This document shows positions 2,074 through 14,243 of a stretch of 14,243 nt of DNA, one piece after another. The stretch spans positions 31,354 through 45,596 of the forward strand of contig NC_000959.1 of assembly GCF_000008565.1 (NCBI RefSeq). The letters run 5' to 3'. Source of the stretch: Deinococcus radiodurans R1 = ATCC 13939 = DSM 20539. GTDB lineage: Bacteria > Deinococcota > Deinococci > Deinococcales > Deinococcaceae. How positions within the stretch are numbered: the stretch's first letter is position 1; each line of letters opens with the position of its first letter. The position numbers and the translations under genes are program-made. Below the pieces are notes generated by a model. That model was given only the letters and a program-made list of their open reading frames with translations, had not been told where the DNA came from and ran no database searches.

Positions 2074-2412
2074 CCTTCAGTAGGTGACAACTTCGCTTTC
2101 AGCGGTTCCTGGCGGGCAAAAAGCCCGGATTAACACCTCTAGGAGCGCCATGAACTGTTTGGGTTTCCACCGTAGGGCATCCACGAGATGCTGAGCACCG
2201 TGTCGCACCAGACTGACCGCTCTCCGACCATGTTTCAGAACGGGGATGGGCCAGGTCTGGCTGAGCCAGACCCCAAGTCGCGGACAGAATATCCAAGCCA
2301 ACGTCACCAGGCCGAAGAGTCGCTGTAGACGGCTCCTTTCCGTCATTCCAGGCCGATCCAGGTCAAAGCCCCGCTTCTTGAAGCTGCTAAAGGTGCACTC
2401 GATTGACCAGCG
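2074..2412 (-). mobile_element. IS4-family remnant: only the 3' end of a transposase gene plus its terminal inverted repeat
   Basis: Terminal repeat TCAGTAGGTGACAACTTC at 2077-2094 is the exact reverse complement of 3599-3616. The minus-strand translation of 2413->2077 is RRWSIECTFSSFKKRGFDLDR...FCPPGTAESEVVTY*, the C-terminal Y-x2-R-x3-E-x6-K region of IS4 transposases. The segment stops abruptly at 2412/2413, where the next IS copy begins. Confidence 0.7.
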
Positions 2413-3609
2413 CCTCAGTAGGTGACAATTCGTCTCCAGCCGCGCCTGGCGGGCAGAAAGGACGGGTGAGCAGTTCCAGGAAAGCCCTGAATCGTTCGGG
2501 TTTCCAACGCAGGGCCTCCACGAGATGCTGAGCGCCGTGCCGCACCAGGCTGACCGCCTTACGACCATGTTTTAGGACGGGGATGGGCCAGGTCTGGCCG
2601 AGCCAGACCCCCAAACGCAAACAGAACATCCAGGCCAGCGTCACCAGGCCGAAGAGTCGCTGCAGACGTCTTCTTTCTGTGATTCCAGTGCGTTCCAGGT
2701 CGAAGTCTCGCTTCTTGAAGCTGCTGAAGGTGCACTCTATCGACCAGCGCTGCTTGTAGAGCTTCCAGGTCTTCCGAGCACTGAAATCGGTAGCGATGAT
2801 GAGAGGTCACCCCCAGGTGACCTCGTCGCCACCACGCGCATCAGTTCCCCGAACACGAACACCTTTTCGCCGATCTCGTGGAAATGACCGTGCTGGACAT
2901 GTTCGAACCATTCTTTCCCACTCATGTCGTCCAGCATGTCGCTGTGCCGAATGCGGATCGCCCGCTTGATGCCATGACGACGGAGAAACCGGAACCATTC
3001 CGCACCGATGAACTCACGATCTGCCACCAGGCCCAGCCAGCGTTTCGCTGGCAAGGCCCGAAGAAGCTTCAATACCAGCCACATCCGGGCGTAGGTGTGA
3101 CTGTTCCCGGACTCGTCAAGGGGCACCCAGATCAGCGGCAGAGTGAAGCCGTGAACCACGGCTCCGAGCACCAGAAAGTTGATCGGGGTCTCGCCATGCT
3201 CCCAGTTCGTGCGGTCCAGGCTCAGCAAGACCTTTCCTGGTGGCAGGTGGACGACGAGCAGAGCGATGAAAAAGCCCATGTCCAGCTGCTCATCCCGGAA
3301 GGTGCGGTCTGCTCGTCTCTTCTTGCCCTGTGGGGTACTCATCCCCGGCATATGGGCACTCAAGTCGTGATGATTGACGCTCCTCGCGGCAATCATCGCC
3401 AGGAGGACATCGATGAGCCGCTGGAGCGTGTCGATGCGGAGGTGACTGGCGTGCGTTTTGAAGTGCCGGGTGAGTACGGTAGCCTGCTGAGCAGCGGATT
3501 CTGTTGATTTCACACTCCCAGGACACCGCAAACAGTCGGCCCCATCAAGCTTGATGGGGCCGACTGTTGGTTTTCTCCGTCTGGGACGAGGGTAAACTGA
3601 AGTTGTCAC
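2387..3609 (-). pseudogene. IS4-family DDE transposase, frameshifted
   Basis: The 290-aa ORF (2737-3609) carries D and D motifs. The E/YREK part (LIIATDFSARKTWKLYKQRWSIECTFSSFKKR...) continues in another frame. The switch lies near the C5 run and small inverted repeat GGTCACCCCCAGGTGACC at 2804-2821. A second 1-nt loss in the terminal repeat removes the normal stop, so the frame reads out of the element to 2387. The likely true start is the GTG at about 3512 (VKSTESAAQQ...), downstream of the 38-bp palindrome. Confidence 0.75.
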
Positions 3610-3618
3610 CTACTGAGG
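2413..3618 (-). mobile_element. IS4-family insertion sequence (about 1.2 kb), degenerate
   Basis: Inverted termini are CCTCAGTAGGTGACAA-TTC (2413-2431, one base missing) and GAAGTTGTCACCTACTGAGG (3599-3618). The element encodes a DDE transposase with LSLDRTNW, LVADREF and YKQRWSIECTFSSFKKR motifs. Confidence 0.8.
3531..3568. repeat. perfect 38-bp palindrome inside the IS4 end
   Basis: AACAGTCGGCCCCATCAAG / CTTGATGGGGCCGACTGTT, 19+19 nt with no mismatch, followed on the plus strand by GGTTTTCT. It lies between the IS terminus and the probable transposase start. Confidence 0.9.
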
Positions 3619-3685
3619 TCAACCCCTAATCGCCATTAAAGGTGTGCTAAATTGCTGTCATATCAAAAACGAAGGAGGTGAGAAA

Positions 3686-3766
3686 ATGCACTTTAAACCT
3701 ACTTTTGAGGTTATGGAGACGAATCCATGCAATGGAACCGTACTGCGCCGACCAGTGGTCGTGTGA
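3686..3766 (+). CDS. small ORF, 26 aa (MHFKPTFEVMETNPCNGTVLRRPVVV); candidate RiPP precursor peptide
   Basis: Not in the supplied ORF track because it is too short. AAGGAGGTG at 3672-3680 lies 5 nt before the ATG at 3686; TGA is at 3764-3766. It has the same orientation as the downstream maturase genes. The N-terminal F-KP-x-F-E resembles the W-x-KP-x-F leader motif of PqqA-type peptides. There is a single Cys and a VVV C-terminus. Confidence 0.5.
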   Translation: MHFKPTFEVMETNPCNGTVLRRPVVV

Positions 3767-3867
3767 TGAGCGAGCTGAAAGCTGAACAGCAGCCCGCTAC
3801 GATTAGTCCTGCTGAACTTCGCAAAGTTCGTGCTGCCATTAAGGCAGCAGTAGCTCAGGCCAAGTAA
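3766..3867 (+). CDS. small ORF, 33 aa (MSELKAEQQPATISPAELRKVRAAIKAAVAQAK); second candidate precursor or accessory peptide
   Basis: The ATG at 3766 overlaps the stop of the preceding small ORF (TGATG), which suggests translational coupling. It has no Shine-Dalgarno of its own. The sequence is Ala/Lys-rich and probably helical. TAA is at 3865-3867. Confidence 0.35.
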   Translation: MSELKAEQQPATISPAELRKVRAAIKAAVAQAK

Positions 3868-3887
3868 TTGATTCTAAGTAATTGATT
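3863..3887. repeat. 11-bp direct repeat AGTAATTGATT x2 separated by 3 nt
   Basis: Copies at 3863-3873 and 3877-3887 are identical. The first overlaps the TAA stop of the 33-aa ORF. The repeat lies 15 nt before the IS5 insertion point. Confidence 0.8.
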
Positions 3888-3901
3888 GATGTGGGAGCCT
3901 A

Positions 3902-4808
3902 GAGCCTGTCAGTCTAGCAATCTGACTTTTTATAAAAAATATGTAAATAGCATAGTAAGGGTGTCACGGCTGGGTGTAGAACTGGGACATGCTGTCAGAG
4001 CGAAAACCCTACAAGAGCGACCTGGATGACGAAACTTACCTCTTCATCCTGCCTTACTTTCTGCTCGCTCCAGAAGACGCTCACCAGCGCGTCTACCCGA
4101 TACGTGAAGTCCTCAATGCCGCTCTGTGGATTGGCCGCACAGGGAGTCAGTGGGAGTACCTCCCACACGACTTTCCGCCATACAAAATTGTCCATCAGCA
4201 ACTGATGCGGTGGTTTGAACGAGGTTGCTTCGAGAACCTCGCTCACGACCTGCATTCACTGGTTCGCGAGGACGCCCTCAAGGAGGGCGTTCCTACCGTT
4301 GCCATCGTGGATAGCCGCACTCTGCAAAGCACGCCCGAGAGTGGCGGACGTGCTGGATATGACGGTGGAAAGCGTCGTAAGGGCAGCAAAATCCACGCTG
4401 CTGTCGACACGATGGGTAATGTCATGACGTTGCTCGTCACCCCTGGCAATGAGCAAGACCGAGAACAGGTCTATGACTTGTGCCGCGAGGTGCAGCAGGT
4501 CACTGGTGACCACATTGATGTCGTTATCGCCGACCAGGGGTACACCGGAGAGCAGCCGCAGATTGATGCTTCCTTGAACGATGTGGAACTTGTTGTGGTG
4601 AAACGCCCGACTGGAGCGACGGGCTTTGTGCTGCTTCCGTTGCGATGGGTGGTTGAACGGACATTCGCCTGGACAGCACGTTTTCGCCGTCTATCACGTG
4701 ATTTGGAGAGGCTGCAAAGCAGTCTCCTCGGCTTTCACTGGCTCGCGGTATCTGTTACGCTCCTAAACAAATTAAAGCCAATTCTTGGCTCGCTAGCCTG
4801 ACAGCCTC
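3902..4808 (+). mobile_element. IS5-family insertion sequence (about 0.9 kb) flanked by a TA duplication
   Basis: Termini are GAGCCTGTCAG (3902-3912) and CTGACAGCCTC (4798-4808), inverted with 10/11 matching. TA lies on both flanks (3900-3901 and 4809-4810). It contains a single transposase ORF. Confidence 0.75.
3989..4801 (+). CDS. IS5-family DDE transposase (270 aa)
   Basis: The N-terminal [19 protein letters not shown]...[10 protein letters not shown] is typical of IS5/IS427-IS1031-type transposases. DDE context: [44 protein letters not shown]. Confidence 0.9.
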
Positions 4809-4837
4809 TATGTAGGTTTTTACATAGAAACCTACAT
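4808..4837. repeat. two mutually exclusive stem-loops between the IS5 end and the radical SAM gene
   Basis: Stem A: CTATGTA (4808-4814) pairs with TACATAG (4821-4827). Stem B: ATGTAGGTTT (4810-4819) pairs with AAACCTACAT (4828-4837). No U-tract follows either, so this is not a canonical intrinsic terminator. Confidence 0.6.
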
Positions 4838-4880
4838 CAATCCTTACTGAATTAGGGTGAGGCAGAGGAGTATCAATTCT

Positions 4881-6035
4881 ATGGTGGCATTTCTCCGTGG
4901 CCCAACACATGTAGATTTCAATCTAACGAACGGTTGTAATTTGGCTTGCTCTCACTGTCACAGTGCTTCGGGACCGAAACTGGATAACGAGCTTAAAACT
5001 GAAGAGATTCTTCAGACAATCGATGCCCTCCATATCATAGGTGCTTTAAAAATTGCTTTTGCAGGCGGGGAACCTTTTATCAGACGTGACATCTTTAATA
5101 TTCTGAGTCATGCCTGTAGTCTTCCTGGCTGGGGTATTTCAGTGATCACCAACGGTTTTTACCTCAACAGTCTAACAGTAGAAAAACTTAAGGCTCAATG
5201 TCCAAATTTAAGCATCAACATTAGCGTGGATGGTTCGACACCAGCCGGTTACAGCACACTCCGCAAGCAATTGAATCGCCCGGATGCCGATCCTCAACCT
5301 CTGTTTGAACGTGTTCTATCCGGCATCGACAACGTGGTGAGATCTGGCATGAGCAACTCGGTCAACTTCACCATTACCAAAGCCACTCTGCACGACATTG
5401 AAGCTACATATGAACTTGTTGTGGATCGCATAGGTGCCGACAACATGGTGGCGATTAAATTCTTCCCTGGCGGATACGGGAAAGAACATCTGGATCTGTA
5501 CGAAATTCCCTATGACATGTGGGACGAACATTTCGTCGCCTTGACCCGCGCGAAACTTGGAGGGAAACTTGAGCGGCTACAAATCTCGGTTCCGGCAGCC
5601 TGGGAGTTCTACCTGCCGTTGATCAATGCGGGTATTCCGATCGAGGAAGCGGAAGAAGTATGGGGTTACCGCAGCCCACTTAGGGAAGACATGTACGCTC
5701 GCATGCGGGAAGTGGGCGACGTGGCGGGCATTTCGGAACTGTGTATCTCTTCAGACGGCGAGGTGTACCCGTCAGTGCTATTGGTCGGGGAAAAAACGAT
5801 GAGCTGCGGGAACCTGCGCGAGCACTCATTGCAGCGTATCTGGCAGGAATCTTCATGCCTGATGGCTCTGCGAGAGTTGAAGCTCTTCGATCTAAATGGC
5901 AATTGCACAAAGTGCGGGGTAAGGGAGGTATGCGGAGGCGGCTCCCGCTCACGGGCCTTCTCCCGCGAAGGCGACTTCCGTGATATGGACTACGTGTGCC
6001 CGATCGTCGAGGTTCCATTGGTAAGTCACGCATGA
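4881..6035 (+). CDS. radical SAM enzyme with C-terminal SPASM-type domain (peptide-modifying maturase class)
   Basis: CNLACSHC (CxxxCxxC) at 4935-4958, with GGEPF and VITNG motifs. C-terminal cysteine pattern: C..DGEVYPS....C, then CTKCGVREVCGGGS, then a final VCP. I prefer the ATG at 4881 (GGAG at 4867-4870, 10-nt spacer) over the GTG at 4857 used by the ORF track. Confidence 0.9.
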   Translation: MVAFLRGPTHVDFNLTNGCNLACSHCHSASGPKLDNELKTEEILQTIDALHIIGALKIAFAGGEPFIRRDIFNILSHACSLPGWGISVITNGFYLNSLTVEKLKAQCPNLSINISVDGSTPAGYSTLRKQLNRPDADPQPLFERVLSGIDNVVRSGMSNSVNFTITKATLHDIEATYELVVDRIGADNMVAIKFFPGGYGKEHLDLYEIPYDMWDEHFVALTRAKLGGKLERLQISVPAAWEFYLPLINAGIPIEEAEEVWGYRSPLREDMYARMREVGDVAGISELCISSDGEVYPSVLLVGEKTMSCGNLREHSLQRIWQESSCLMALRELKLFDLNGNCTKCGVREVCGGGSRSRAFSREGDFRDMDYVCPIVEVPLVSHA

Positions 6036-6373
6036 AGACAATTTCTCCGCAAGTGCTCAGCTCCGCCTGTACTTCGGTTCGGTACTACAGGGAGGAACAG
6101 GGCTGCGAGATCCGTATTGCCAGCAAAGTCGTGTTCGGTGACGACCAGCTGGCCTGTCTGCTCGATCTTCTGCTGAGCCAGGTAGACGGCGCGACACTCG
6201 TCAAGCGTGTCCATATGCTCATTGGCGGAAAAGAACCGGCGAAATCGGTCGAAGTCGCACTGGGCGTGCTCCAGCAGCTTGAGGACGAGGTCGGCATCAC
6301 AAAATCGGTGTGGCCAAATGCTGCACCACTACTGGCGTTTAGGAACTCGAACGGACTGGACGCGACCCCATGA
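6032..6373 (+). CDS. small PqqD-like protein, putative RiPP recognition element (113 aa)
   Basis: The ATG at 6032 overlaps the radical SAM stop (ATGA). The pattern FGDDQLACLLDLLLSQVDGATLVKRV....SVEVALGVLQQLEDEVGI resembles the PqqD pattern (L-N-x-aa-x-i-l-x-l-x-DG-x-x-v..i ... v-x-x-f-l-x-x-L-x-x-x-g-l). Its position directly after a SPASM radical SAM gene is typical. The assignment is by eye only. Confidence 0.55.
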   Translation: MKTISPQVLSSACTSVRYYREEQGCEIRIASKVVFGDDQLACLLDLLLSQVDGATLVKRVHMLIGGKEPAKSVEVALGVLQQLEDEVGITKSVWPNAAPLLAFRNSNGLDATP

Positions 6374-7908
6374 CCTCAGACGTTCTCGTCATTGCGCCTT
6401 TTCGTCGTCCGACGTTCCGTACGGCTATCTCCCATCTATATCCCGTTACGGAACCTTGGGACTCACCACCGCTTATTACCTGCGGTGCCATACAGGAAGC
6501 GGGACTGGAAGTCGACTACGTGGCCCTCCAGAATATCTTTAACGGTTACGATCCGGAACGTGACGGCAGAGACCTAAACGAAATATTGGGTGTGTTGCAT
6601 CCGAAGGTGGTGATCTTCAGCAGCGATCACTTCATTCCCAGTCGCAGCACCGCCTCCATTTACGGCATTTCCTTGGTGTCGAAGATATTCAAGTCACGCG
6701 AACGGCCGCCCCTGATAGGCGTCTGCGGACGTCTAGCCACAGTGGCTGCGCAGCGCCTCTTCGCAGAGGTGCCGGAAGTGGATTTCGCCGTCATCGGTGA
6801 ATCGGATGGTGTTATTGGTGAGGTTGTGGCTGACTTACTGGCGGCCGACATGGAGGAGACGTCGAGGCGGCACGGCTATGTACATACCCGTACCGCCCCT
6901 GCTCGGGATATAGCTTACATGGGTGACGTCAATGACGTTGCCTTGCCAGCCTTCGCACTGGCCCTTCCGTCTATAGCACAGTACCGCAGCCGTTTCGGCC
7001 TAGAAGAAAACCCATTGCCTTTCAGTCTACGGACGTCGTTCGGCTGCAAGTTCAAGTGCCGTTTCTGTGCTGGCGTCCCCCACTGGCTAGATTACCGTAA
7101 GAAGTCGCCCGATCGTGTGCAAGCAGAGCTGGATGCATTCCTCAACCAGTTGGGTGATCAAGCACGAATTTCCTTCCTTGAGGACGAGATCTTCACACGG
7201 GATCCAGAGCATGTCGCTGCGATCACGGCATTACTCAAGGAACGTAACATCTATTTGGACGGTCTGTACACCCACTCGACCCTTCTGACGCCCGAGATCG
7301 CTGCCGACCTATGTACTGTGGCTGACCGCGTCTTTACGGGGCTTGACAACGCAGACGACCAGATCCTGCGCAAGATGGGTAAAGGTCAACTACTTGATAC
7401 TGTCCTTGACGCGGTCGAGAAAGCCCAGGCCGCCTCGTTGAAGGTGCATCTAGAATGGATCATCGGTACGCCTGAAGAGACCCTAGACACGCTCGTCACC
7501 TCGCTGAGCACCATCTTCAACCTGTTAAGCACACACGCCGTCGAAAGCATTAACACATACGTTTACTGTCCGCACCCAGGCACAGACTATACAGTGAACG
7601 CGAAAAAGTACCGAATGCGCGTTCTGGACACCTTCGACGGCATTCAAGAATCGGGGGGGTACCCCGCGTTCGACACTGCGAACTTGACCAGAAACCAGAT
7701 CTACACCGCATACCTGATGAGCCAACTTGTGATTGCAGAAGTGACCGCCGCAAGACAACACAGCAGCATCCCTCGAGCAGTCGTCCCAGCAAGCCGGAGT
7801 GAACTGCTGCGGCTGTTCGGAATGATTGGTGAAGGACAGGTTGCCTTCGATTTCGATGAAGCACCTGTCGGCAGAGTGTCCTACCCTGAAGGAACCAGCA
7901 GAGCATGA
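6370..7908 (+). CDS. B12-binding-domain radical SAM protein (class B architecture, 512 aa)
   Basis: The ATG at 6370 overlaps the upstream stop (ATGA). The N-terminal ~170 aa are Rossmann-like (VLVIAPF...AIQEAGLEVDYVAL...KVVIFSS...IGVCGRLAT...VDFAVIGESDG). This is followed by CKFKCRFC (CxxxCxxC) at 7045-7068. Confidence 0.85.
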   Translation: MTSDVLVIAPFRRPTFRTAISHLYPVTEPWDSPPLITCGAIQEAGLEVDYVALQNIFNGYDPERDGRDLNEILGVLHPKVVIFSSDHFIPSRSTASIYGISLVSKIFKSRERPPLIGVCGRLATVAAQRLFAEVPEVDFAVIGESDGVIGEVVADLLAADMEETSRRHGYVHTRTAPARDIAYMGDVNDVALPAFALALPSIAQYRSRFGLEENPLPFSLRTSFGCKFKCRFCAGVPHWLDYRKKSPDRVQAELDAFLNQLGDQARISFLEDEIFTRDPEHVAAITALLKERNIYLDGLYTHSTLLTPEIAADLCTVADRVFTGLDNADDQILRKMGKGQLLDTVLDAVEKAQAASLKVHLEWIIGTPEETLDTLVTSLSTIFNLLSTHAVESINTYVYCPHPGTDYTVNAKKYRMRVLDTFDGIQESGGYPAFDTANLTRNQIYTAYLMSQLVIAEVTAARQHSSIPRAVVPASRSELLRLFGMIGEGQVAFDFDEAPVGRVSYPEGTSRA

Positions 7909-10016
7909 ACCGACCACAGTATGTCCTGGGTGTGAGCATGTCGAACCACGACCGGTCAGCCTGCCTTCTGCGTGACGGAGAGATAGTCGCTGCCGTCGCT
8001 GAAGAGCGCCTAGATCGTCGGAAAAAATCGGAAGGCTTTTACGAACAGCACCTCGGAAGTGCTGTCCTGCCCCCATATCGCGCCATCACCGCGGTTCTGC
8101 ATGAAGCAGGCCTCACCGTCGGCGATATCGACCGTGTGGTGTGTGGGCGCTCCATCCTCCCTTGCCGAGACGATCTGCTCAACCAATTCCCGTTCCCGCC
8201 GGAAAAAGTAGTAGAGATTCCTGTTCCGGGGCATCACATAGCTCATGCCTGCAGCGCCTTTTTCACCAGTCCTTTCGAGAATGCTGCCGTACTGGTGCTT
8301 GACGAACAGGGCCACCGTTTGGAAGACGATAGGTTCGAGCGTATGACCTGGTACACCGCGCATGGCACGCAAGTCGTGCCCATCCGTCAATTCTACGGCG
8401 ATTCAGAAACATTGAGTCTGGGTATGTTCATGGACGCCTTCGCTACTTTTACTGGACTTAGCGAAGCAAAGCAGCCCTCTGCCGGGAAATTGATGGGATT
8501 AGCGGCCGTTGGGCAGGAAAGGCAGCAGTGGCCCTCACTCGTCACGACTGTTGATGATGGGGACGCATACGTCCGGCTGAGCGAGCTAGATAGCTTCTTC
8601 GCCAGCGTACTGCCGAGACGAGTCGAGTTCGAAGGCGGCATCGTCAGACAACTAGATGACCTACTGGCCAAGTACTGGCCTGTTCATTGGAGTTCCAATC
8701 TTGCCGCTGACCTCGCTTTTAAGGCACAAGCAGAGCTGGAGGGAGCACTTTTACATATCAACCGGCACCTGAAGGCGCAGGTCGGAAGCGAAAACCTGGC
8801 CTATGCCGGAGGGGTGGCGCTGAATTGCACCGCAAACGCCAAACTGAGCCTTGCTGGATGGCGTGACGTGTTTGTCCACCCCGCTGCCACTGACGACGGG
8901 AATGCCGTCGGCTTGGCCTACTACGGCCAGCGATCTCTGGCCGGCAAGCACCGCCGACCTGAACTATTCAATCCCATGACAGGCCCGAGGTACTCCCAGA
9001 AGGCGGTTGAGGAAGCTGTCCACCGCTTCGGTCTAGGCGAGTGGCTTGAACGGACCGACATGAGCGACGAGGCTGCAGAACGCCTGAGCCGTGGAGAAAC
9101 GCTCTGCTGGTTCTTAGGAAGAAGCGAGTGGGGGCCGCGAGCCCTGGGTGGACGCAGTATCGTGGCTGACCCAACGGTTCCCGGAATCAAGGCGCTGATC
9201 AATTCCCGCATCAAACACCGTGAACCATTCCGGCCGTTCGGAATCAGCGGCACACCACGCGGTGTGGAACAGGCCCTGGACGTTGGAGCAGCACTGCCCT
9301 CGCTCGCGCCGTATATGCTGGCCGTCGCCAGGGCGCGCGATACGCGTTTGAGCCAGCTCCAACACCAAGACGGTTCTATCCGTTACCAGATAGTACAGCG
9401 CGCGTGGCAACCGGAGTGGTTCGGTATGATTGAGGCGTTCGGGCGACGTTCGGGAGTGGAGTGTATCGTTAACACGTCATTCAACGTCCTAGGCGAACCA
9501 CTCGTCGAGACGCCCTCCGACGCTGTCCGGCAATTTGTGTTGAGCGGTGCCCAGGCCCTTCTCATCAATGGTTTCCGTCTGGATAGCGCCGACGTTCCTC
9601 GAGAATACCTTCGCCAGATACGACGGCAGGCTTTCCAGGCAGGTGGGCAGCACCCGTTGAAAGTCGCCCTAGGCATTGAGGCCGCCGGATACTGTGCTGC
9701 GGCAATCACATTCTTGGAGGATCAGGAGTTCGGCGAGGAAGCTGCCGAGGCCGAGGGAAAACAGGTACTTCGTGCCTACTACAGCCTCCATCTCCGGGGT
9801 GCTCTACTGAAGAATGAACATGAGCGCTCTACGGAACTCTCCAAATACCTCCTAGCCATGGCCGAATTCGACGGCGCAGTATTGGAAGCCGCCAGTGTTC
9901 TGGAGGCGACTGAACAACCCGAGACTCAGGCCATGGGTCAATTCTTCACGCATATTGGACGTTATGGTTCGGCCTTCAGGCATGCCAGCGGAATCTGGGC
10001 AGGAACCGATGGCTGA
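7905..10016 (+). CDS. NodU/CmcH/TobZ-family carbamoyltransferase with about 140-aa C-terminal extension (703 aa)
   Basis: The ATG at 7905 overlaps the upstream stop (ATGA). N-terminal motifs: VLGVSMSNHDRSACLLRDGEIVAAVAEERLDRRK and GHHIAHACSAFFTSPF. C-terminal domain motifs: GPRALGGRSIVADP, INSRIKHREPFRPFG, HQDGSIRYQ, NTSFNVLGEPLVETPSDAV. Residues encoded by about 9582-10013 lie after the last conserved block. Confidence 0.9.
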   Translation: MNRPQYVLGVSMSNHDRSACLLRDGEIVAAVAEERLDRRKKSEGFYEQHLGSAVLPPYRAITAVLHEAGLTVGDIDRVVCGRSILPCRDDLLNQFPFPPEKVVEIPVPGHHIAHACSAFFTSPFENAAVLVLDEQGHRLEDDRFERMTWYTAHGTQVVPIRQFYGDSETLSLGMFMDAFATFTGLSEAKQPSAGKLMGLAAVGQERQQWPSLVTTVDDGDAYVRLSELDSFFASVLPRRVEFEGGIVRQLDDLLAKYWPVHWSSNLAADLAFKAQAELEGALLHINRHLKAQVGSENLAYAGGVALNCTANAKLSLAGWRDVFVHPAATDDGNAVGLAYYGQRSLAGKHRRPELFNPMTGPRYSQKAVEEAVHRFGLGEWLERTDMSDEAAERLSRGETLCWFLGRSEWGPRALGGRSIVADPTVPGIKALINSRIKHREPFRPFGISGTPRGVEQALDVGAALPSLAPYMLAVARARDTRLSQLQHQDGSIRYQIVQRAWQPEWFGMIEAFGRRSGVECIVNTSFNVLGEPLVETPSDAVRQFVLSGAQALLINGFRLDSADVPREYLRQIRRQAFQAGGQHPLKVALGIEAAGYCAAAITFLEDQEFGEEAAEAEGKQVLRAYYSLHLRGALLKNEHERSTELSKYLLAMAEFDGAVLEAASVLEATEQPETQAMGQFFTHIGRYGSAFRHASGIWAGTDG

Positions 10017-11238
10017 CGGCCCCGTCGCTGCCCCCTTTATGAGACTAAGTTCGAAGCTGAGGGATGACCTTTACGAGGAAGTCAGGCACGACAAGACGTG
10101 GCACCAGCGCCTCACCTGGAGTCGTGGAGAATGGACTCCCGGAAGCCTGACTAGCTTGGCCTCTCGCTTCGAACGTTCCCTGCGGTGGAACAAAGTCAAG
10201 CCAGAAAAGGAAAACTTCGATTCTCCACGACCAACCATTCAGTCACAATCGATCTGCCGGGAACACTTGACAGGAACGGCACCCGAGTTCCTGAGCGAGG
10301 AGACGCTCAGAATTCTAACGGAAGCGGTTGGGTCGGCGCAGATCAAAGAAGCGGTTATCGATATGGAGTGCTGGGAGAGAACCTTCCTCAACTCCGAGGG
10401 CTGTTCAGTCACAACTCAAGGGAAATGGTTTGACTTCTACGCCTCGTACAATACAGGAGCCGCGCTCGTTCGCTGGAGGGATGGAACCTCCACTCAAGAA
10501 GAAGTATCGCGGCTTGCCCGGCCACCGCTGCCTATCCTCGGGAGAGGGGTCACCTGGAGTGAACCTAGAACGATAGACACGGTGCGGTACGACCTCGTAC
10601 TACTTTCGCCGACGGCCTCGTCCGTTGTCATCCACGAACTGATCGGACATGGGTGCGAACACTTCAGAGAAAAAATCGTTGGACTGCGTGTCGGGCCTGA
10701 GGAACTACGGGTGGTGGCTTTTCCGAAGAACGGCTCCGGGTTTGATGACGAGGGTACACCCTCCGAAGAGATTGTACTTGTGGAGAACGGCATTGTGAGG
10801 CACGCTGTCAGGGATCGGGCGACTGGAGGAATGGCGCCTTTTTCCGGTTTGACCAAAGTGGCATCACATGGTGTCAAACCTGGCTCAAGATGTACGCATC
10901 TCAAGGCGGAAGGGGAATCGTCACAGGAAGGAGTTACCGGAGTACCCGCCGAACGCACCGTTTGGATAGAGCATTTTTCTGCAGCGAACTACCATTCAGG
11001 TCGAGCCTTTTTCAGGTCTGGCCTTGCCTGGGTAGGCAGCCGAGAAGAACTCTTATATCCCTTAATGCCTTTCACCATGTCAATTGATATCTACGAACTG
11101 GCCAGCTTATTGTGGCATTTAGACGGTCAAACGGAACGAGCACGTAGTGGACTGTGCAATAAGGACGGTGAGTTTCTTCCAACGTTTAATTTTGCTCCGA
11201 AGATAGCTCTTCGACCCGTTGTATCTATCAGGCCATGA
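10009..11238 (+). CDS. TldD-like zinc metallopeptidase (TldD/PmbA superfamily, HExxxH present)
   Basis: HELIGH at 10633-10650, and GFDDEGTPSEEIVLVENGIV as in TldD (DDEG-P....L-ENG). I prefer the ATG at 10009 (an 8-nt overlap, ATGGCTGA, with the upstream gene) over the track start at 9895. Confidence 0.8.
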   Translation: MADGPVAAPFMRLSSKLRDDLYEEVRHDKTWHQRLTWSRGEWTPGSLTSLASRFERSLRWNKVKPEKENFDSPRPTIQSQSICREHLTGTAPEFLSEETLRILTEAVGSAQIKEAVIDMECWERTFLNSEGCSVTTQGKWFDFYASYNTGAALVRWRDGTSTQEEVSRLARPPLPILGRGVTWSEPRTIDTVRYDLVLLSPTASSVVIHELIGHGCEHFREKIVGLRVGPEELRVVAFPKNGSGFDDEGTPSEEIVLVENGIVRHAVRDRATGGMAPFSGLTKVASHGVKPGSRCTHLKAEGESSQEGVTGVPAERTVWIEHFSAANYHSGRAFFRSGLAWVGSREELLYPLMPFTMSIDIYELASLLWHLDGQTERARSGLCNKDGEFLPTFNFAPKIALRPVVSIRP

Positions 11239-12274
11239 AGTGGGATTTTCTACAATACGTCACTCGCGGCAAGATTCCAGGGCGTCCATTGACGGGCTCT
11301 CATGGAAGGAGAGCCTTACTGAGGAGAAGTATGTGCGTGTCAGAATCTTAGACGACTTCGGTCTACGCGTCTACGTCGGGCCGGGTGGAGCGGATGAGGA
11401 GCTTTTGTTTGAAAGGACGCTTGAGTCACCATGCCAAAAAGGGATCGGGCTAGCGTTGAGCGGGACTGTGAAATGCACCCGATTTGAGCCGGAGGATGCG
11501 CTTGCACTCGGGGAAAATCCTCTGCGACCCTTCATAGGAATGGTCACGACTACAAGGCAGGATTCATTCAGGGCGACGTTGCGCACTTTTGAGGAGAATG
11601 TTCTGGAGTGGGATTGGGAACAGCATTCATGCCACACACATGCAAAAGACCGGGATCACATAACGCAGGCGCACTTGCAGATGGAAGAACTCCTTTGGAG
11701 TCCGTCTGCCTTGTCCGGCCTACTTTACGAGGCTGTTGTGAAACGGTTGCAAAGCCAGGAACGCTGGGGGAAAGGGCTGTTCGTCGGGGAACTGAATCGA
11801 TGTGGGGCCGCTTTTGACTTGGACGGCACCCCCCACTCCTCGGCGGCCTTCGTGATGAACGGGGAATTCGTCATGTCCCCGCGAGGGCGGCTGGCACAGG
11901 AAGGGGATACGCACGGCAGTTCTGGGCACGGTGGCCTCTCGAAACCGTTTCTCACAGATCTGTACATCGGGAGTTACTCGTGCAACCCTCCGCTTCTTCC
12001 CCTAATTAAAGCGGGGGTGCCGTTCGTGGAGAGCGTCCATGAACTGTCGGGGGATATGTTTGCCCTTGACCTCTCGGTTTTCGAAGAGGGAAACACGACC
12101 GTAGCGAATAACATCGGGTCGCTGGTCGTCGGCTGGCGCGATGAGTTTTCCTGGCTAACGTTTCTAAACTCTCTGAGATGGTACGGCTCTTTAGAGCACG
12201 GAGTGGAAGCCTGGATTTCGTCCTGGGCCTTGAGTGGCCCTTATACAACCTATTTCCAAGAGTGGTGCTTTTGA
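11219..12274 (+). CDS. PmbA/TldE-like protein (TldD/PmbA superfamily, no HExxxH); start uncertain
   Basis: FDLDGTPHSSAAFVMNGEFV and GHGGLSKPF blocks parallel the DxEG...NG and GHAGG blocks of PmbA. It sits next to the TldD-like gene, the arrangement expected for a heterodimer. The track start is the TTG at 11219, and a GTG at 11240 is also in frame. The ATG coupled to the upstream stop (11235) is in a different frame (see findings). Confidence 0.65.
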   Translation: MYLSGHEVGFSTIRHSRQDSRASIDGLSWKESLTEEKYVRVRILDDFGLRVYVGPGGADEELLFERTLESPCQKGIGLALSGTVKCTRFEPEDALALGENPLRPFIGMVTTTRQDSFRATLRTFEENVLEWDWEQHSCHTHAKDRDHITQAHLQMEELLWSPSALSGLLYEAVVKRLQSQERWGKGLFVGELNRCGAAFDLDGTPHSSAAFVMNGEFVMSPRGRLAQEGDTHGSSGHGGLSKPFLTDLYIGSYSCNPPLLPLIKAGVPFVESVHELSGDMFALDLSVFEEGNTTVANNIGSLVVGWRDEFSWLTFLNSLRWYGSLEHGVEAWISSWALSGPYTTYFQEWCF

Positions 12275-12284
12275 AAGGTGAGCC

Positions 12285-13493
12285 ATGAGGAAAAACGTCA
12301 ACAATACGCTCTGGATCTTGCTTGCTGGAAGTATTGTCTCGGAAACGGGAATGTGGATCGGCTTCGTCGGAACACTCCAATTCCTACAACAGGTTCTTTC
12401 TTCAACGTTCAACCAAGCCCTTTTCCTAATTGTGCCATCTCTTCTCGGTCTGGCGATTGGGCCAATTGCAGGACGGGTCGTCGATCAGCACGCTAAACAG
12501 CTCATCCTGAAGGTGAGTAGTGCCTTGAGGATCCTAGCACCGGCATTGATGCTACTAGCAATAGAACAACGGTCTATCGTATTCGCCGTCATCAGTACCC
12601 TCATCGGAGGACTAGTCACGTCTTTCTACTACCCAGCCTTGCGTGCCACATTCCCACTAGTCGCGTCAGGGCAAGCTCTAGCTATGGCGAACATGTGGAA
12701 CTTCAACCTGATCACGCTCGCCAGGATCATCGGCACTACATTCGGCGGTCTACTCATAGTCAACGATAATTTGGAAGTGTCCTACCAGCTGGCTATGCTT
12801 TCCTACGTTGTCATCGCGCTCCAGACTTGGCTGATCCGTATAGATGAAGATGCCACGAGCAACCGGCACAATCAGGTGGACTCCCGAAAAATGGCGTTTA
12901 CCGAGGTTCTGCGCCTGATTGGGAATAGTAGGGAATTAGTCTTCGCGCTGACAATAAACCTTATTCCATATATCTTTATTGCCGGATTTAACATCTTCGT
13001 TATTGGCATCAGTACCCTGCAGCAAAACGTCGGGATCAAGGGCGCCCTCTACACTGTTGAAGGGGTCGGTATCCTGATATCAAGCCTCTTCTACAGAAGG
13101 ATGATAAAGAAATTCGACGTGAAGAATATCATCCTAGCAACTGCTTTCCTCATCTGCGCGGCGGAACTATTCCTGCTTGGTGCCGGGAACAAGTGGCTCT
13201 CAATTCTGGGATTCGCCATCTTCGGGATCTCAGGTGGGTTCTTCATTCCTACCCTTCAGACCTTTTTACAGAACTCAGTCGAAAACACCTACCACGGCCG
13301 CCTCTTCTCGCTCAAACGGATGCTCGAAACGGGCATAACCCTCGTCACCCTTCCATTCTATGGAATTGTGATCGATAGACTTGGTATCACATCGCTGATG
13401 GCAATCATCTTAACTCTCTCTACAGCAATCTACCTTTTTGCTATTGCACAGCTAGTCGGGATGAATTCGCGTTTAGCTGGAGAGAGACGTTAA
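12285..13493 (+). CDS. MFS transporter (about 12 predicted hydrophobic spans), probable exporter
   Basis: Hydrophobic throughout. The N-terminus LLAGSIVSETGMWIGFVG and loop GPIAGRVVDQHAKQ resemble the MFS motif-A region of EntS/MFS_3-type efflux pumps. AAGGTGAG lies just upstream of the ATG at 12285. Confidence 0.85.
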   Translation: MRKNVNNTLWILLAGSIVSETGMWIGFVGTLQFLQQVLSSTFNQALFLIVPSLLGLAIGPIAGRVVDQHAKQLILKVSSALRILAPALMLLAIEQRSIVFAVISTLIGGLVTSFYYPALRATFPLVASGQALAMANMWNFNLITLARIIGTTFGGLLIVNDNLEVSYQLAMLSYVVIALQTWLIRIDEDATSNRHNQVDSRKMAFTEVLRLIGNSRELVFALTINLIPYIFIAGFNIFVIGISTLQQNVGIKGALYTVEGVGILISSLFYRRMIKKFDVKNIILATAFLICAAELFLLGAGNKWLSILGFAIFGISGGFFIPTLQTFLQNSVENTYHGRLFSLKRMLETGITLVTLPFYGIVIDRLGITSLMAIILTLSTAIYLFAIAQLVGMNSRLAGERR

Positions 13494-13517
13494 TCGCTGT
13501 GCAATGGAGGAGACTAT

Positions 13518-14222
13518 ATGACAGACACATTAAGTCTATCGACCTTGACTGGCTGGAAAAAAGTAAAAGACACCCTTGAAGATTACAATTACCGGTTGCT
13601 CAGCTTTGAGGAACGTGGTACGCAATATCCCAGCTTCTTCCTTGCTTTTGACCTGCTGGATCCGTCACAGCATTTGAAAGTGCGGGGCGCGCTAACACGT
13701 GGACTTTCAGGGCCACGCCTGACACGCCTAGAGCAAGAACTCTGCCACAAATACGAGGGCAGGAAAGCCAACAATGGACCGGAAAAAGTTGACGTGATTG
13801 CGCTGATCAGGGACATTGTTTTCGACTGCGTCGGAATCCCGAAGGAAGAGGCGCTCGAGATCCTTGCAACATACACCGTCAGCCAGCGTTACCTGAAACA
13901 CGAGGGGGAACAATCGCCAGAAGGGCGTTATGCTTTGCAACTCGCACTCGAACGCATAGGTGAGGCGCTCGGTGACAGGCCACGGCTTTCCTCTTCGTTT
14001 GTCAGGTTCCTCGACGAGGATGCGACCTACACCGAAGAGCAAAAACTATACCTAGTCGTTCCATTCTTTGACATGCTCGTCGCAGAAAAAACCTTCGAAC
14101 TTCCGATTGCCCTCGCTAAGGCCCTTTCTGAATGCCCAGGGCAGACTCCTATTGTATCCAGCGAATTTGCGATAACCAGCGGAACTTCGATGACTATTTC
14201 CACGAATGTGCTCGCCTCCTAG
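13518..14222 (+). CDS. hypothetical protein (234 aa), no recognisable motif
   Basis: GGAGGA (13506-13511) lies 6 nt before the ATG at 13518, which is 24 nt after the MFS stop on the same strand. The protein looks soluble, acidic and helical. I recognise no family. Confidence 0.7.
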   Translation: MTDTLSLSTLTGWKKVKDTLEDYNYRLLSFEERGTQYPSFFLAFDLLDPSQHLKVRGALTRGLSGPRLTRLEQELCHKYEGRKANNGPEKVDVIALIRDIVFDCVGIPKEEALEILATYTVSQRYLKHEGEQSPEGRYALQLALERIGEALGDRPRLSSSFVRFLDEDATYTEEQKLYLVVPFFDMLVAEKTFELPIALAKALSECPGQTPIVSSEFAITSGTSMTISTNVLAS

Positions 14223-14243
14223 AAGGTATTCAGGTTCAACGGA

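Follow-up and report, generated by a model that had tools for sequence, protein, structure and literature searches.

What does the gene long known as pqqE make in Deinococcus radiodurans? This gene, DR_C0034, is the published 'pqqE', or 'PQQ synthase', of the organism (PMC6300522), PQQ being pyrroloquinoline quinone. It underlies both the claim that PQQ is made there with a lone 'pqqE' and the PQQ-RqkA model of the radiation response. DR_C0034 lies on plasmid CP1 of D. radiodurans R1, in a stretch of 14,243 nucleotides (NC_000959.1, positions 31,354 to 45,596 of the forward strand) that we call the window and whose own numbering we use throughout. Our analysis makes it likely that DR_C0034 is a peptide maturase and not a PQQ synthase, and that it belongs to a conserved cassette for a peptide that is synthesised on ribosomes and modified after translation (RiPP), which turns a 60-residue peptide into an exported, modified product. 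A conserved RiPP pathway is supported because a family of precursor peptides adjoins the same enzymes in Bacillus, Streptomyces, Kribbella, Sinorhizobium and metagenomes, and this genomic context argues that the annotation of DR_C0034 is wrong. An original prediction, made from the letters of the window, had seen a heavily tailored, exported RiPP here. The core of that reading holds through the conserved precursor family and the recurring enzymes; its gene set is real, and most of the families it named are confirmed by Pfam or NCBIfam. Its PqqD label finds no support, its count of open reading frames (ORFs) needs correction, and it overlooked a cytochrome P450.

Before the genes can be read, the sequence itself needs correction. 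The window is part of CP1, with about 100% identity to 13 plasmid records in a whole-window alignment, and its carbamoyltransferase is found residue for residue on CP1 of D. radiodurans R1 and its laboratory derivatives. Compared with the re-sequenced plasmids NZ_CP031503 and NZ_CP015084, the window shows exactly five differences, each a one-base deletion, at 2428, 2802, 3723, 11255 and 14165. The first two fall in the transposase of an IS4-like element, the third in a small ORF, the fourth at the start of a TldE-like gene, and the fifth in the last ORF. Each breaks a reading frame, and all enzyme ORFs are intact in the re-sequenced plasmids. The five deletions are probably errors of the early assembly, since the corrected frames give back conserved proteins. 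With these corrections the cassette reads as follows (aa, amino acids; SAM, S-adenosylmethionine; MFS, major facilitator superfamily).

3686–3867, plus strand: precursor-peptide gene (RefSeq A2G07_RS18110), corrected product of 60 aa, MHFKPTFEVMETKSMQWNRTAPTSGRVMSELKAEQQPATISPAELRKVRAAIKAAVAQAK
4881–6035, plus strand: radical SAM enzyme with a SPASM-type C-terminal domain, 384 aa (DR_C0034, A2G07_RS15860, WP_010884089.1)
6032–6373, plus strand: 113-aa partner protein of no Pfam or NCBIfam family; stop/start overlaps of four bases with both neighbours
6370–7908, plus strand: class-B-like radical SAM enzyme, 512 aa, with an N-terminal domain of about 200 aa followed by a CxxxCxxC core
7905–10016, plus strand: TobZ/NodU-type carbamoyltransferase, 703 aa (DR_C0037, A2G07_RS15875)
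10009–11238, plus strand: TldD-like zinc metalloprotease, 409 aa, with HELIGH and a conserved C-terminal Cys ligand
11235–12274, plus strand: TldE/PmbA-like paralog lacking HExxxH, 346 aa once the one-base deletion at 11255 is corrected
12285–13493, plus strand: MFS transporter, 402 aa, DHA3/Mef-like, presumed exporter
13518–14243 (window end), plus strand: short cytochrome P450, cut by the deletion at 14165 and then by the end of the window, 333 aa when corrected

From 4881 to 13493 the genes run co-directionally on the plus strand with overlapping stop and start codons. The prediction of nine co-directional ORFs with hardly any space between them is borne out by these overlaps, except that the ORF at 3989–4801 is the transposase of an insertion sequence (IS), ISDra5. 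A 2024 RNA-seq table equates A2G07_RS15860 with DR_C0034 and A2G07_RS15875 with DR_C0037 (PMC11229311).

Is there a peptide for these enzymes to act on? In the window as deposited, the deletion at 3723 splits the precursor gene into ORFs at 3686–3766 and 3727–3867. The mended gene is preceded by a strong Shine-Dalgarno sequence (AAGGAGGTGA, 3672–3681) and encodes a peptide of 60 aa, in which the invariant block Met-x-Trp-Asn-Arg lies close to the N-terminus and an amphipathic helix forms the C-terminal part. A profile built from five such peptides collected a family of about 35 members, in which M15, W17, N18 and R19 (M-x-W-N-R) are invariant and P, F, E, T, V, S and Q residues nearly so. The family consensus is MxxFxPAFEVTxVxSMQWNRT, then a variable linker, then the helix pattern PLSxxVLxxVRxAIxxE. 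When genome contigs were scanned with one narrow pattern from the precursor alignment, only the A. marmarensis locus came back. Precursors of the inspected loci range from 54 to 105 aa; the rhizobial ones have 105 aa, end in a long C-terminal tail and are without the PAFEVT block. For 19 of the 35 members, the contig is equal in size to one that carries a carbamoyltransferase homologue. No Pfam or NCBIfam model covers the peptide or its family. PqqA peptides have the sequence MWKKPAF...LEVTLY, which resembles the FKPAFEVT of the precursor family (3686–3745), a lead that Pfam did not confirm. Kinship with PqqA, suggested by the KPAF and EVT of both, was rejected: no member of the family gave a convincing Pfam match, PqqA included, and the Glu is missing in S. 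meliloti. A 46-aa form of the D. radiodurans peptide (P0133) is present in some public assemblies.

The pathway is supported by its recurrence. Besides D. radiodurans, we found the set in Bacillus paranthracis, Streptomyces canus, Sinorhizobium meliloti, Alkalihalophilus marmarensis, Kribbella monticola and two metagenome contigs. The order that recurs across loci is precursor, SPASM radical SAM enzyme, protein of about 100 aa, second radical SAM enzyme, carbamoyltransferase, P450, TldD, TldE and transporter. The small ORF is conserved and syntenic in eight of the nine inspected loci, so the gene set does recur with a conserved short ORF, as a check proposed with the original prediction had asked. 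The position at which that prediction began its cluster, 3686, proves to be the start of this precursor-like ORF, which travels with the same enzymes in at least eight loci from four phyla. An exporter, either MFS or of the ATP-binding cassette (ABC) type, is present in every intact locus; the Kribbella locus has ABC transporters in place of the MFS pump. We found no description of the enzyme combination or of the M-x-W-N-R motif in a literature search whose coverage took in few subscription journals, in keeping with the original prediction, which knew of no described RiPP class with such an enzyme set.

Some loci depart from the common plan. In Kribbella monticola (L015, 14505–19906) the precursor gene stands at the end of the operon and is followed by glycosyltransferase and sugar-nucleotide genes, with two ABC transporters; this may be a glycosylated variant. 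A Nonomuraea locus was considered as a variant free of radical SAM enzymes and rejected, as it is a truncated remnant in which the ORF of 101 aa corresponds to the C-terminal end of the class-B-like enzyme.

DR_C0034 is a SPASM radical SAM enzyme, as predicted. Pfam scores are 83.6 bits for Radical_SAM and 31.5 bits for SPASM, against a cut-off of 21.5, and its CxxxCxxC motif reads CNLACSHC, with C19, C23 and C26 invariant. In the SPASM region only C342, C345, C351 and C373 (CxxCx5C...C) are invariant and two upstream Cys vary; the canonical CGGGC is replaced by a conserved CGGGS in all five orthologues compared, so that the full seven-Cys motif is absent. With only four invariant Cys in the tail and CGGGS in place of CGGGC, the enzyme would seem to have just one auxiliary cluster with all its ligands. 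It is most closely related to the peptide maturases SkfB, PqqE and CteB. Its score on the PqqE model TIGR02109 is 79 bits, far below the cut-off of 381.35, and it does better on other SPASM models (AhbD, 146 bits; WgkB, 143.5 bits). Among structures, PqqE (6c8v_A) matches at E=4e-17 and SkfB equally well, both over the core only. The orthologues of DR_C0034 in the inspected loci always lie within the carbamoyltransferase/TldD cassette.

The gene that follows encodes the 113-aa protein, which had been called a PqqD-like RiPP recognition element (RRE). An ORF of this size does exist, but the PqqD label finds no support. Neither the protein nor 22 relatives gave a Pfam or NCBIfam hit at E<=1, PF05402 included, and hhalign against a PqqD sequence gave a probability of 2.6%, while the PqqD control hits PF05402 at 6e-16. 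Foldseek of the structural model against the PDB returned nothing under E=0.4. An exhaustive profile search raised the number of relatives to 24, from four found by a word-indexed search. The AlphaFold2 model (mean predicted local distance difference test, pLDDT, 79.6, from a shallow alignment) has three or four strands and then helices, an order compatible with an RRE. In S. meliloti, in the two metagenome loci (L014 and L016) and in P0179, the domain forms the C-terminal part of a fusion with the radical SAM enzyme. It is therefore a reasonable inference, from this physical link, that the 113-aa protein is a partner or chaperone of the radical SAM enzyme.

The second radical SAM enzyme carries CKFKCRFC as its CxxxCxxC motif. 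It had been read as a B12-dependent enzyme that C-methylates the peptide, and both parts of that reading need to be softened. Over residues 36–430 the protein gives full-length, sub-threshold matches to the class-B families HpnJ, BchE and HpnR; these, and a sub-threshold match to a RiPP C-methyltransferase model, take in its N-terminal domain. The B12-binding domain PF02310 reaches E=0.039, also sub-threshold; the A. marmarensis orthologue has a weak hit, and PDB matches cover the core only. C-methylation is one option for such an enzyme and not the sole one, since the B12-domain radical SAM enzyme BipD of the biphenomycin pathway makes a biaryl carbon-carbon bond and does not methylate (PMC12707348). 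The enzyme is missing from some loci, among them that of S. canus, so its step is best regarded as accessory.

The carbamoyltransferase, DR_C0037, is full length, as the original prediction held: it scores 110.8 bits for Carbam_trans_N and 164.3 bits for Carbam_trans_C in Pfam and matches TobZ at E=1e-51. Its Kae1-like and YrdC-like domains are both present, and the residues that bind metal and nucleotide are conserved: H110, H111, H114 and D133 and the block K437/R439/E440/R443 are invariant in 30 homologues, and the homologues form a subfamily of proteins of about 700 aa with about 90 clusters at 39–53% identity. Its model (pLDDT 90.7) shows an extra nine-helix C-terminal domain at residues ~566–699. 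This domain may be a peptide-binding module, a proposal that we make because more distant relatives have tetratricopeptide repeats at that position.

The P450 completes the set. The corrected last ORF has the heme motif FGKGEHACLG (FxxGxxxCxG), and P450s in the PDB align to it over residues 35–312 with E about 1e-7. The protein is short at its N-terminus and its own Pfam score is 18.1 against a cut-off of 22.8, while its orthologues hit PF00067. These orthologues sit elsewhere between the carbamoyltransferase and TldD genes, and in the P0021 locus carbamoyltransferase and P450 are fused, which suggests that the two act in sequence. Proteobacterial-type variants (L010, L014 and L016) have a second, full-length P450 (383–432 aa) upstream of the precursor gene. 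Downstream of the window, at 17363–19784 of the plasmid locus L007, the P450 is followed by two genes, one for a mobile-domain protein of phosphoenolpyruvate (PEP)-utilising type, which may overlap the P450 stop codon, and one for a PPDK_N ATP-grasp protein. The pair resembles a rifampicin-phosphotransferase/PEP-synthase-like enzyme, split and with its domain order reversed. We rejected these two genes as pathway members, as they are present in no other locus inspected.

The predicted pairing of an HExxxH TldD-like gene with an HExxxH-less paralog is upheld. In the TldD-like family H209, E210, H214 and C383 are invariant, and its profile aligns to E. coli TldD (5nj5_A) at E=1e-15; the protein is not the housekeeping orthologue, scoring 21.6 bits on the TldD model against a cut-off of 635. 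The TldE-like family aligns to the TldD-like family in hhalign (probability 86%, E=5e-6) with the HExxxH replaced. For the D. radiodurans TldE-like protein itself, neither Pfam nor the PDB gave a direct hit, and its B. paranthracis orthologue hits PmbA_TldD_3rd at 5e-11. A protein-family match places the transporter in the MFS, again as predicted.

How might these proteins work together? We propose that DR_C0034 and the 113-aa partner would introduce a radical-mediated cross-link, or a similar change, at the invariant Trp block. The class-B-like enzyme might add a methyl group or a second carbon-carbon bond, as an accessory step, and the short P450 would oxidise the peptide. The carbamoyltransferase, using carbamoyl phosphate and ATP and perhaps holding the peptide in its helical C-terminal domain, would place a carbamoyl group on the hydroxyl just formed, or on a Ser, Thr or Lys. 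The TldD/TldE-like heterodimer would trim the unmodified flanks up to the modified core, and the MFS pump would export the product.

Individual elements of this scheme are found in known systems, none of which has the whole. SPASM enzymes that cross-link Trp (StrB/SuiB of streptide, DarE of darobactin, WgkB and the 3-CyFEs of triceptides) are maturases whose targets are short motifs that contain Trp. DR_C0034 has sub-threshold hits to the WgkB and DynA models, although all the scores lie far under the family cut-offs; moreover, only one auxiliary-cluster Cys set is conserved in DR_C0034, and its partner is discrete or C-terminal and not an N-terminal RRE. Bottromycin, with its N-terminal modified block and long follower, its class-B radical SAM enzymes, its P450 and its MFS transporter, is also similar, but it uses YcaO enzymes and an alpha/beta hydrolase and lacks a SPASM radical SAM enzyme, a carbamoyltransferase and TldD/E. 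The PQQ system of PqqA, PqqD and PqqE shares a SPASM-type radical SAM enzyme, a small partner, a short peptide and protease and oxygenase steps. The cassette differs from it in adding a carbamoyltransferase, a class-B-like radical SAM enzyme, a P450, TldD/E and an exporter, and in lacking PqqB and PqqC.

For trimming, bond formation and carbamoylation there are closer parallels. In microcin B17 processing, a subunit with HExxxH pairs with a paralog that lacks the motif, and this heterodimer clears away unmodified peptide as far as the modified core (PMC5810440); that TldD/TldE is a housekeeping host enzyme, whereas the pair encoded in this cluster is divergent and dedicated. Biphenomycin is a RiPP with a tiny core between leader and follower, both of which are trimmed, in the manner of a 'pencil sharpener', by an in-cluster TldD-type protease (PMC12707348, PMC12257519). 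With this protease and the carbon-carbon bond made by BipD, biphenomycin offers a direct precedent for two of the proposed steps. It differs in having an MNIO enzyme, an arginase, TldD without TldE and a Phe-Arg-Phe core, and in lacking a SPASM radical SAM enzyme and a carbamoyltransferase (PMC12707348, PMC12257519). NodU/TobZ-type carbamoyltransferases act on ribosomal peptides in crocagin (CgnI, PMC10070186) and in the std cluster (StdF, PMC13174530); StdF carbamoylates Lys with carbamoyl phosphate and ATP, in what the preprint calls only the second example (PMC13174530). Their contexts are different, with BURP-like and dioxygenase partners in one and YcaO and MNIO in the other, and StdF is fused to an S8 peptidase. 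Unlike CgnI and StdF, the carbamoyltransferase of the cassette has the helical C-terminal domain and is paired with a P450, to which it is fused once.

Several points weigh against our interpretation. The pathway is known here from genes, and the chemistry assigned to each step follows from the enzyme families; likewise, the putative core of the peptide is placed by conservation. Cobalamin binding by the second radical SAM enzyme is weakly supported. The profile of the 113-aa family gives chance-level hits against PDB sequences, matching no known peptide-binding fold. The D. radiodurans peptide is off consensus at three conserved positions (A6T, T10M and V12T), and ISDra5 opens a gap of about 1 kb between the small ORF and the enzyme genes. 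The D. radiodurans copy may thus be impaired, since the IS parts peptide from enzymes and the three substitutions are present. Finally, PQQ production dependent on DR_C0034 has been reported, as summarised in a review (PMC6300522).

How far has this copy decayed? Two mobile elements and a disrupted hairpin lie around the precursor gene.

2077–3621, minus strand: IS4-like element, 89–93% identical to ISDra1-type copies elsewhere in Deinococcus
3898–4812 (ends approximate), plus strand: ISDra5 (IS5 family), not part of the pathway, with inverted repeats at 3900–3918 and 4792–4810 and its transposase at 3989–4801
3884–4842, plus strand: split stem-loop after the precursor gene, its arms (3884–3895 and 4831–4842) parted by the IS, with an inner hairpin at 4810–4837

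When ISDra5 is removed in silico, the stem-loop region has a folding energy of -27.3 kcal/mol (z=-2.7). Similar hairpins lie 3' of the precursor gene in several loci, including those of B. paranthracis (z=-4.2) and A. marmarensis (z=-4.8). The IS4-like element contains a terminator-like hairpin with a 17-bp stem (3531–3568) and has its end only some 65 bp upstream of the start codon of the precursor gene; it may have displaced the native promoter of the cluster.

It is possible, though doubtful, that the D. radiodurans cassette is a decaying, non-productive relic, which would be compatible with a RiPP pathway for the family as a whole. ISDra5 not only parts the precursor gene from the enzymes but also splits the hairpin, the IS4-like element ends close to the start codon, and the partner protein as well as the peptide deviates at conserved positions. 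Gene order is rearranged, with the P450 placed after the MFS gene, and some laboratory strains, such as that of locus L003, carry further disruptions. Yet the enzyme ORFs are all intact in the re-sequenced plasmids, and a mutant phenotype has been reported (PMC6300522). Transcripts of DR_C0034 and DR_C0037 have been found and vary in step, falling jointly in recJ mutants (RNA-seq, PMC11229311), and DRC0037 was detected on arrays (PMC4507557). In L003 (NZ_CP038994, 8467–15100), a laboratory derivative, the class-B-like radical SAM gene is split into parts of 438 and 74 aa, and a phage-integrase gene takes the place of the TldE-like and MFS genes.

Base composition also bears on the history of the cassette. 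The G+C content is 48–60% across the region and about 53% for the cassette, which is low for D. radiodurans and fits horizontal acquisition. We infer that the cassette was acquired in this way and took on the IS4-like element at its flank and ISDra5 inside, yet is still transcribed.

Could the product be a small molecule excised from the peptide rather than a modified peptide? By this account the cassette would make a Trp-based cofactor, signal or antioxidant, in the manner of PQQ or mycofactocin, with TldD/E excising a modified unit of one to three residues, and no peptide antibiotic would be involved. The M-x-W-N-R block is invariant across four phyla, as peptides that serve as scaffolds for fixed products typically are, the enzyme logic of radical SAM enzyme, small partner, protease and oxygenase is like that of PQQ, the N-terminus of the precursor resembles PqqA (KPAF...EVT), and the TldD-type enzyme of biphenomycin can release a tripeptide core (PMC12707348). 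We nevertheless think this unlikely. A dedicated exporter is found in every intact locus, and no client enzyme is conserved nearby. The spread is patchy and tied to plasmids, insertion sequences and, in S. meliloti, to a type IV secretion system and relaxase that adjoin the locus; no other Deinococcus species carries the 'pqqE' gene (PMC6300522). Such a patchy distribution, linked to mobile elements, speaks for a specialised secreted metabolite more than for a cofactor.

If the cassette does make an exported RiPP, what of the phenotypes credited to PQQ? As summarised in the review (PMC6300522), a DR_C0034 mutant shows sensitivity to H2O2, to mitomycin C and to ionising radiation, RqkA is a kinase that PQQ stimulates in vitro, and the RqkA model was built on 'pqqE'. 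An insertion in DR_C0034 would probably be polar on the whole operon, since the genes are translationally coupled. One could imagine that these phenotypes, and the 'protein-kinase inducer' activity credited to PQQ from 'pqqE', are due instead to a new cassette product, Trp-centred, cross-linked and carbamoylated, with a signalling or antioxidant role. We offer this as a long shot. If it were true, the cassette product and not PQQ would stand behind two decades of 'pqqE' phenotypes; at the least, the family would define a new RiPP class.

That DR_C0034 is a genuine PqqE, and that the locus makes PQQ alone or with other partners as the Deinococcus literature says, we consider very improbable. 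In its favour stand the mutant sensitivity and the stimulation of RqkA by PQQ, as the review relates them (PMC6300522), together with the place of the PqqE structure among the better PDB matches. But the TIGR02109 score is a fraction of its cut-off, the heme-synthase-like and WgkB models do far better at about 145 bits, and SkfB equals PqqE as a structural match. A Pfam and NCBIfam search of all ORFs found no pqqA, B, C or D in the window; the review itself notes that the D. radiodurans genome is without other pqq genes and that elsewhere PQQ synthesis needs all four of PqqA, C, D and E (PMC6300522). The conserved peptide next to DR_C0034 has no tyrosine and no Glu-x3-Tyr motif, and the orthologues keep to the carbamoyltransferase/TldD cassette.

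It is scarcely credible that the enzymes tailor a non-ribosomal small molecule, aminoglycoside- or nucleoside-like, with the small ORF irrelevant: the carbamoyltransferases TobZ, GdmN and NovN and AprD4-like radical SAM enzymes do act on small molecules, but here a small ORF with invariant residues is syntenic in nearly all inspected loci, the relatives of the radical SAM enzyme are peptide maturases, a TldD/TldE protease pair is present, and no sugar, non-ribosomal peptide synthetase or polyketide synthase scaffold genes are conserved across loci.

The reading that we favour, an exported RiPP, places the cassette within a known kind of pathway and contradicts a long-standing annotation in a model organism. 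The RiPP family that it describes is well defined, spans phyla and is apparently uncharacterised. Its combination of enzymes is unusual: a SPASM-type radical SAM enzyme is joined by a novel partner domain and by a second, class-B-like radical SAM enzyme, the P450 is coupled to the carbamoyltransferase, and the TldD/TldE pair is a dedicated one. Bacillus and Alkalihalophilus have intact copies free of insertion sequences, from which the product could be obtained directly, and the old puzzle of PQQ synthesis without pqqA, C or D is now experimentally testable.

Two neighbouring regions may be mentioned. At 593–1891 the window holds a 432-aa ORF that belongs to no Pfam or NCBIfam family and whose DNA is 92.6% identical to part of a small plasmid from D. 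wulumuqiensis. Just past the cluster on the plasmid, at 22455–23091 of L007, lie qatD (of the Qat anti-phage system), a resolvase gene and the IS630-like ISDra3.

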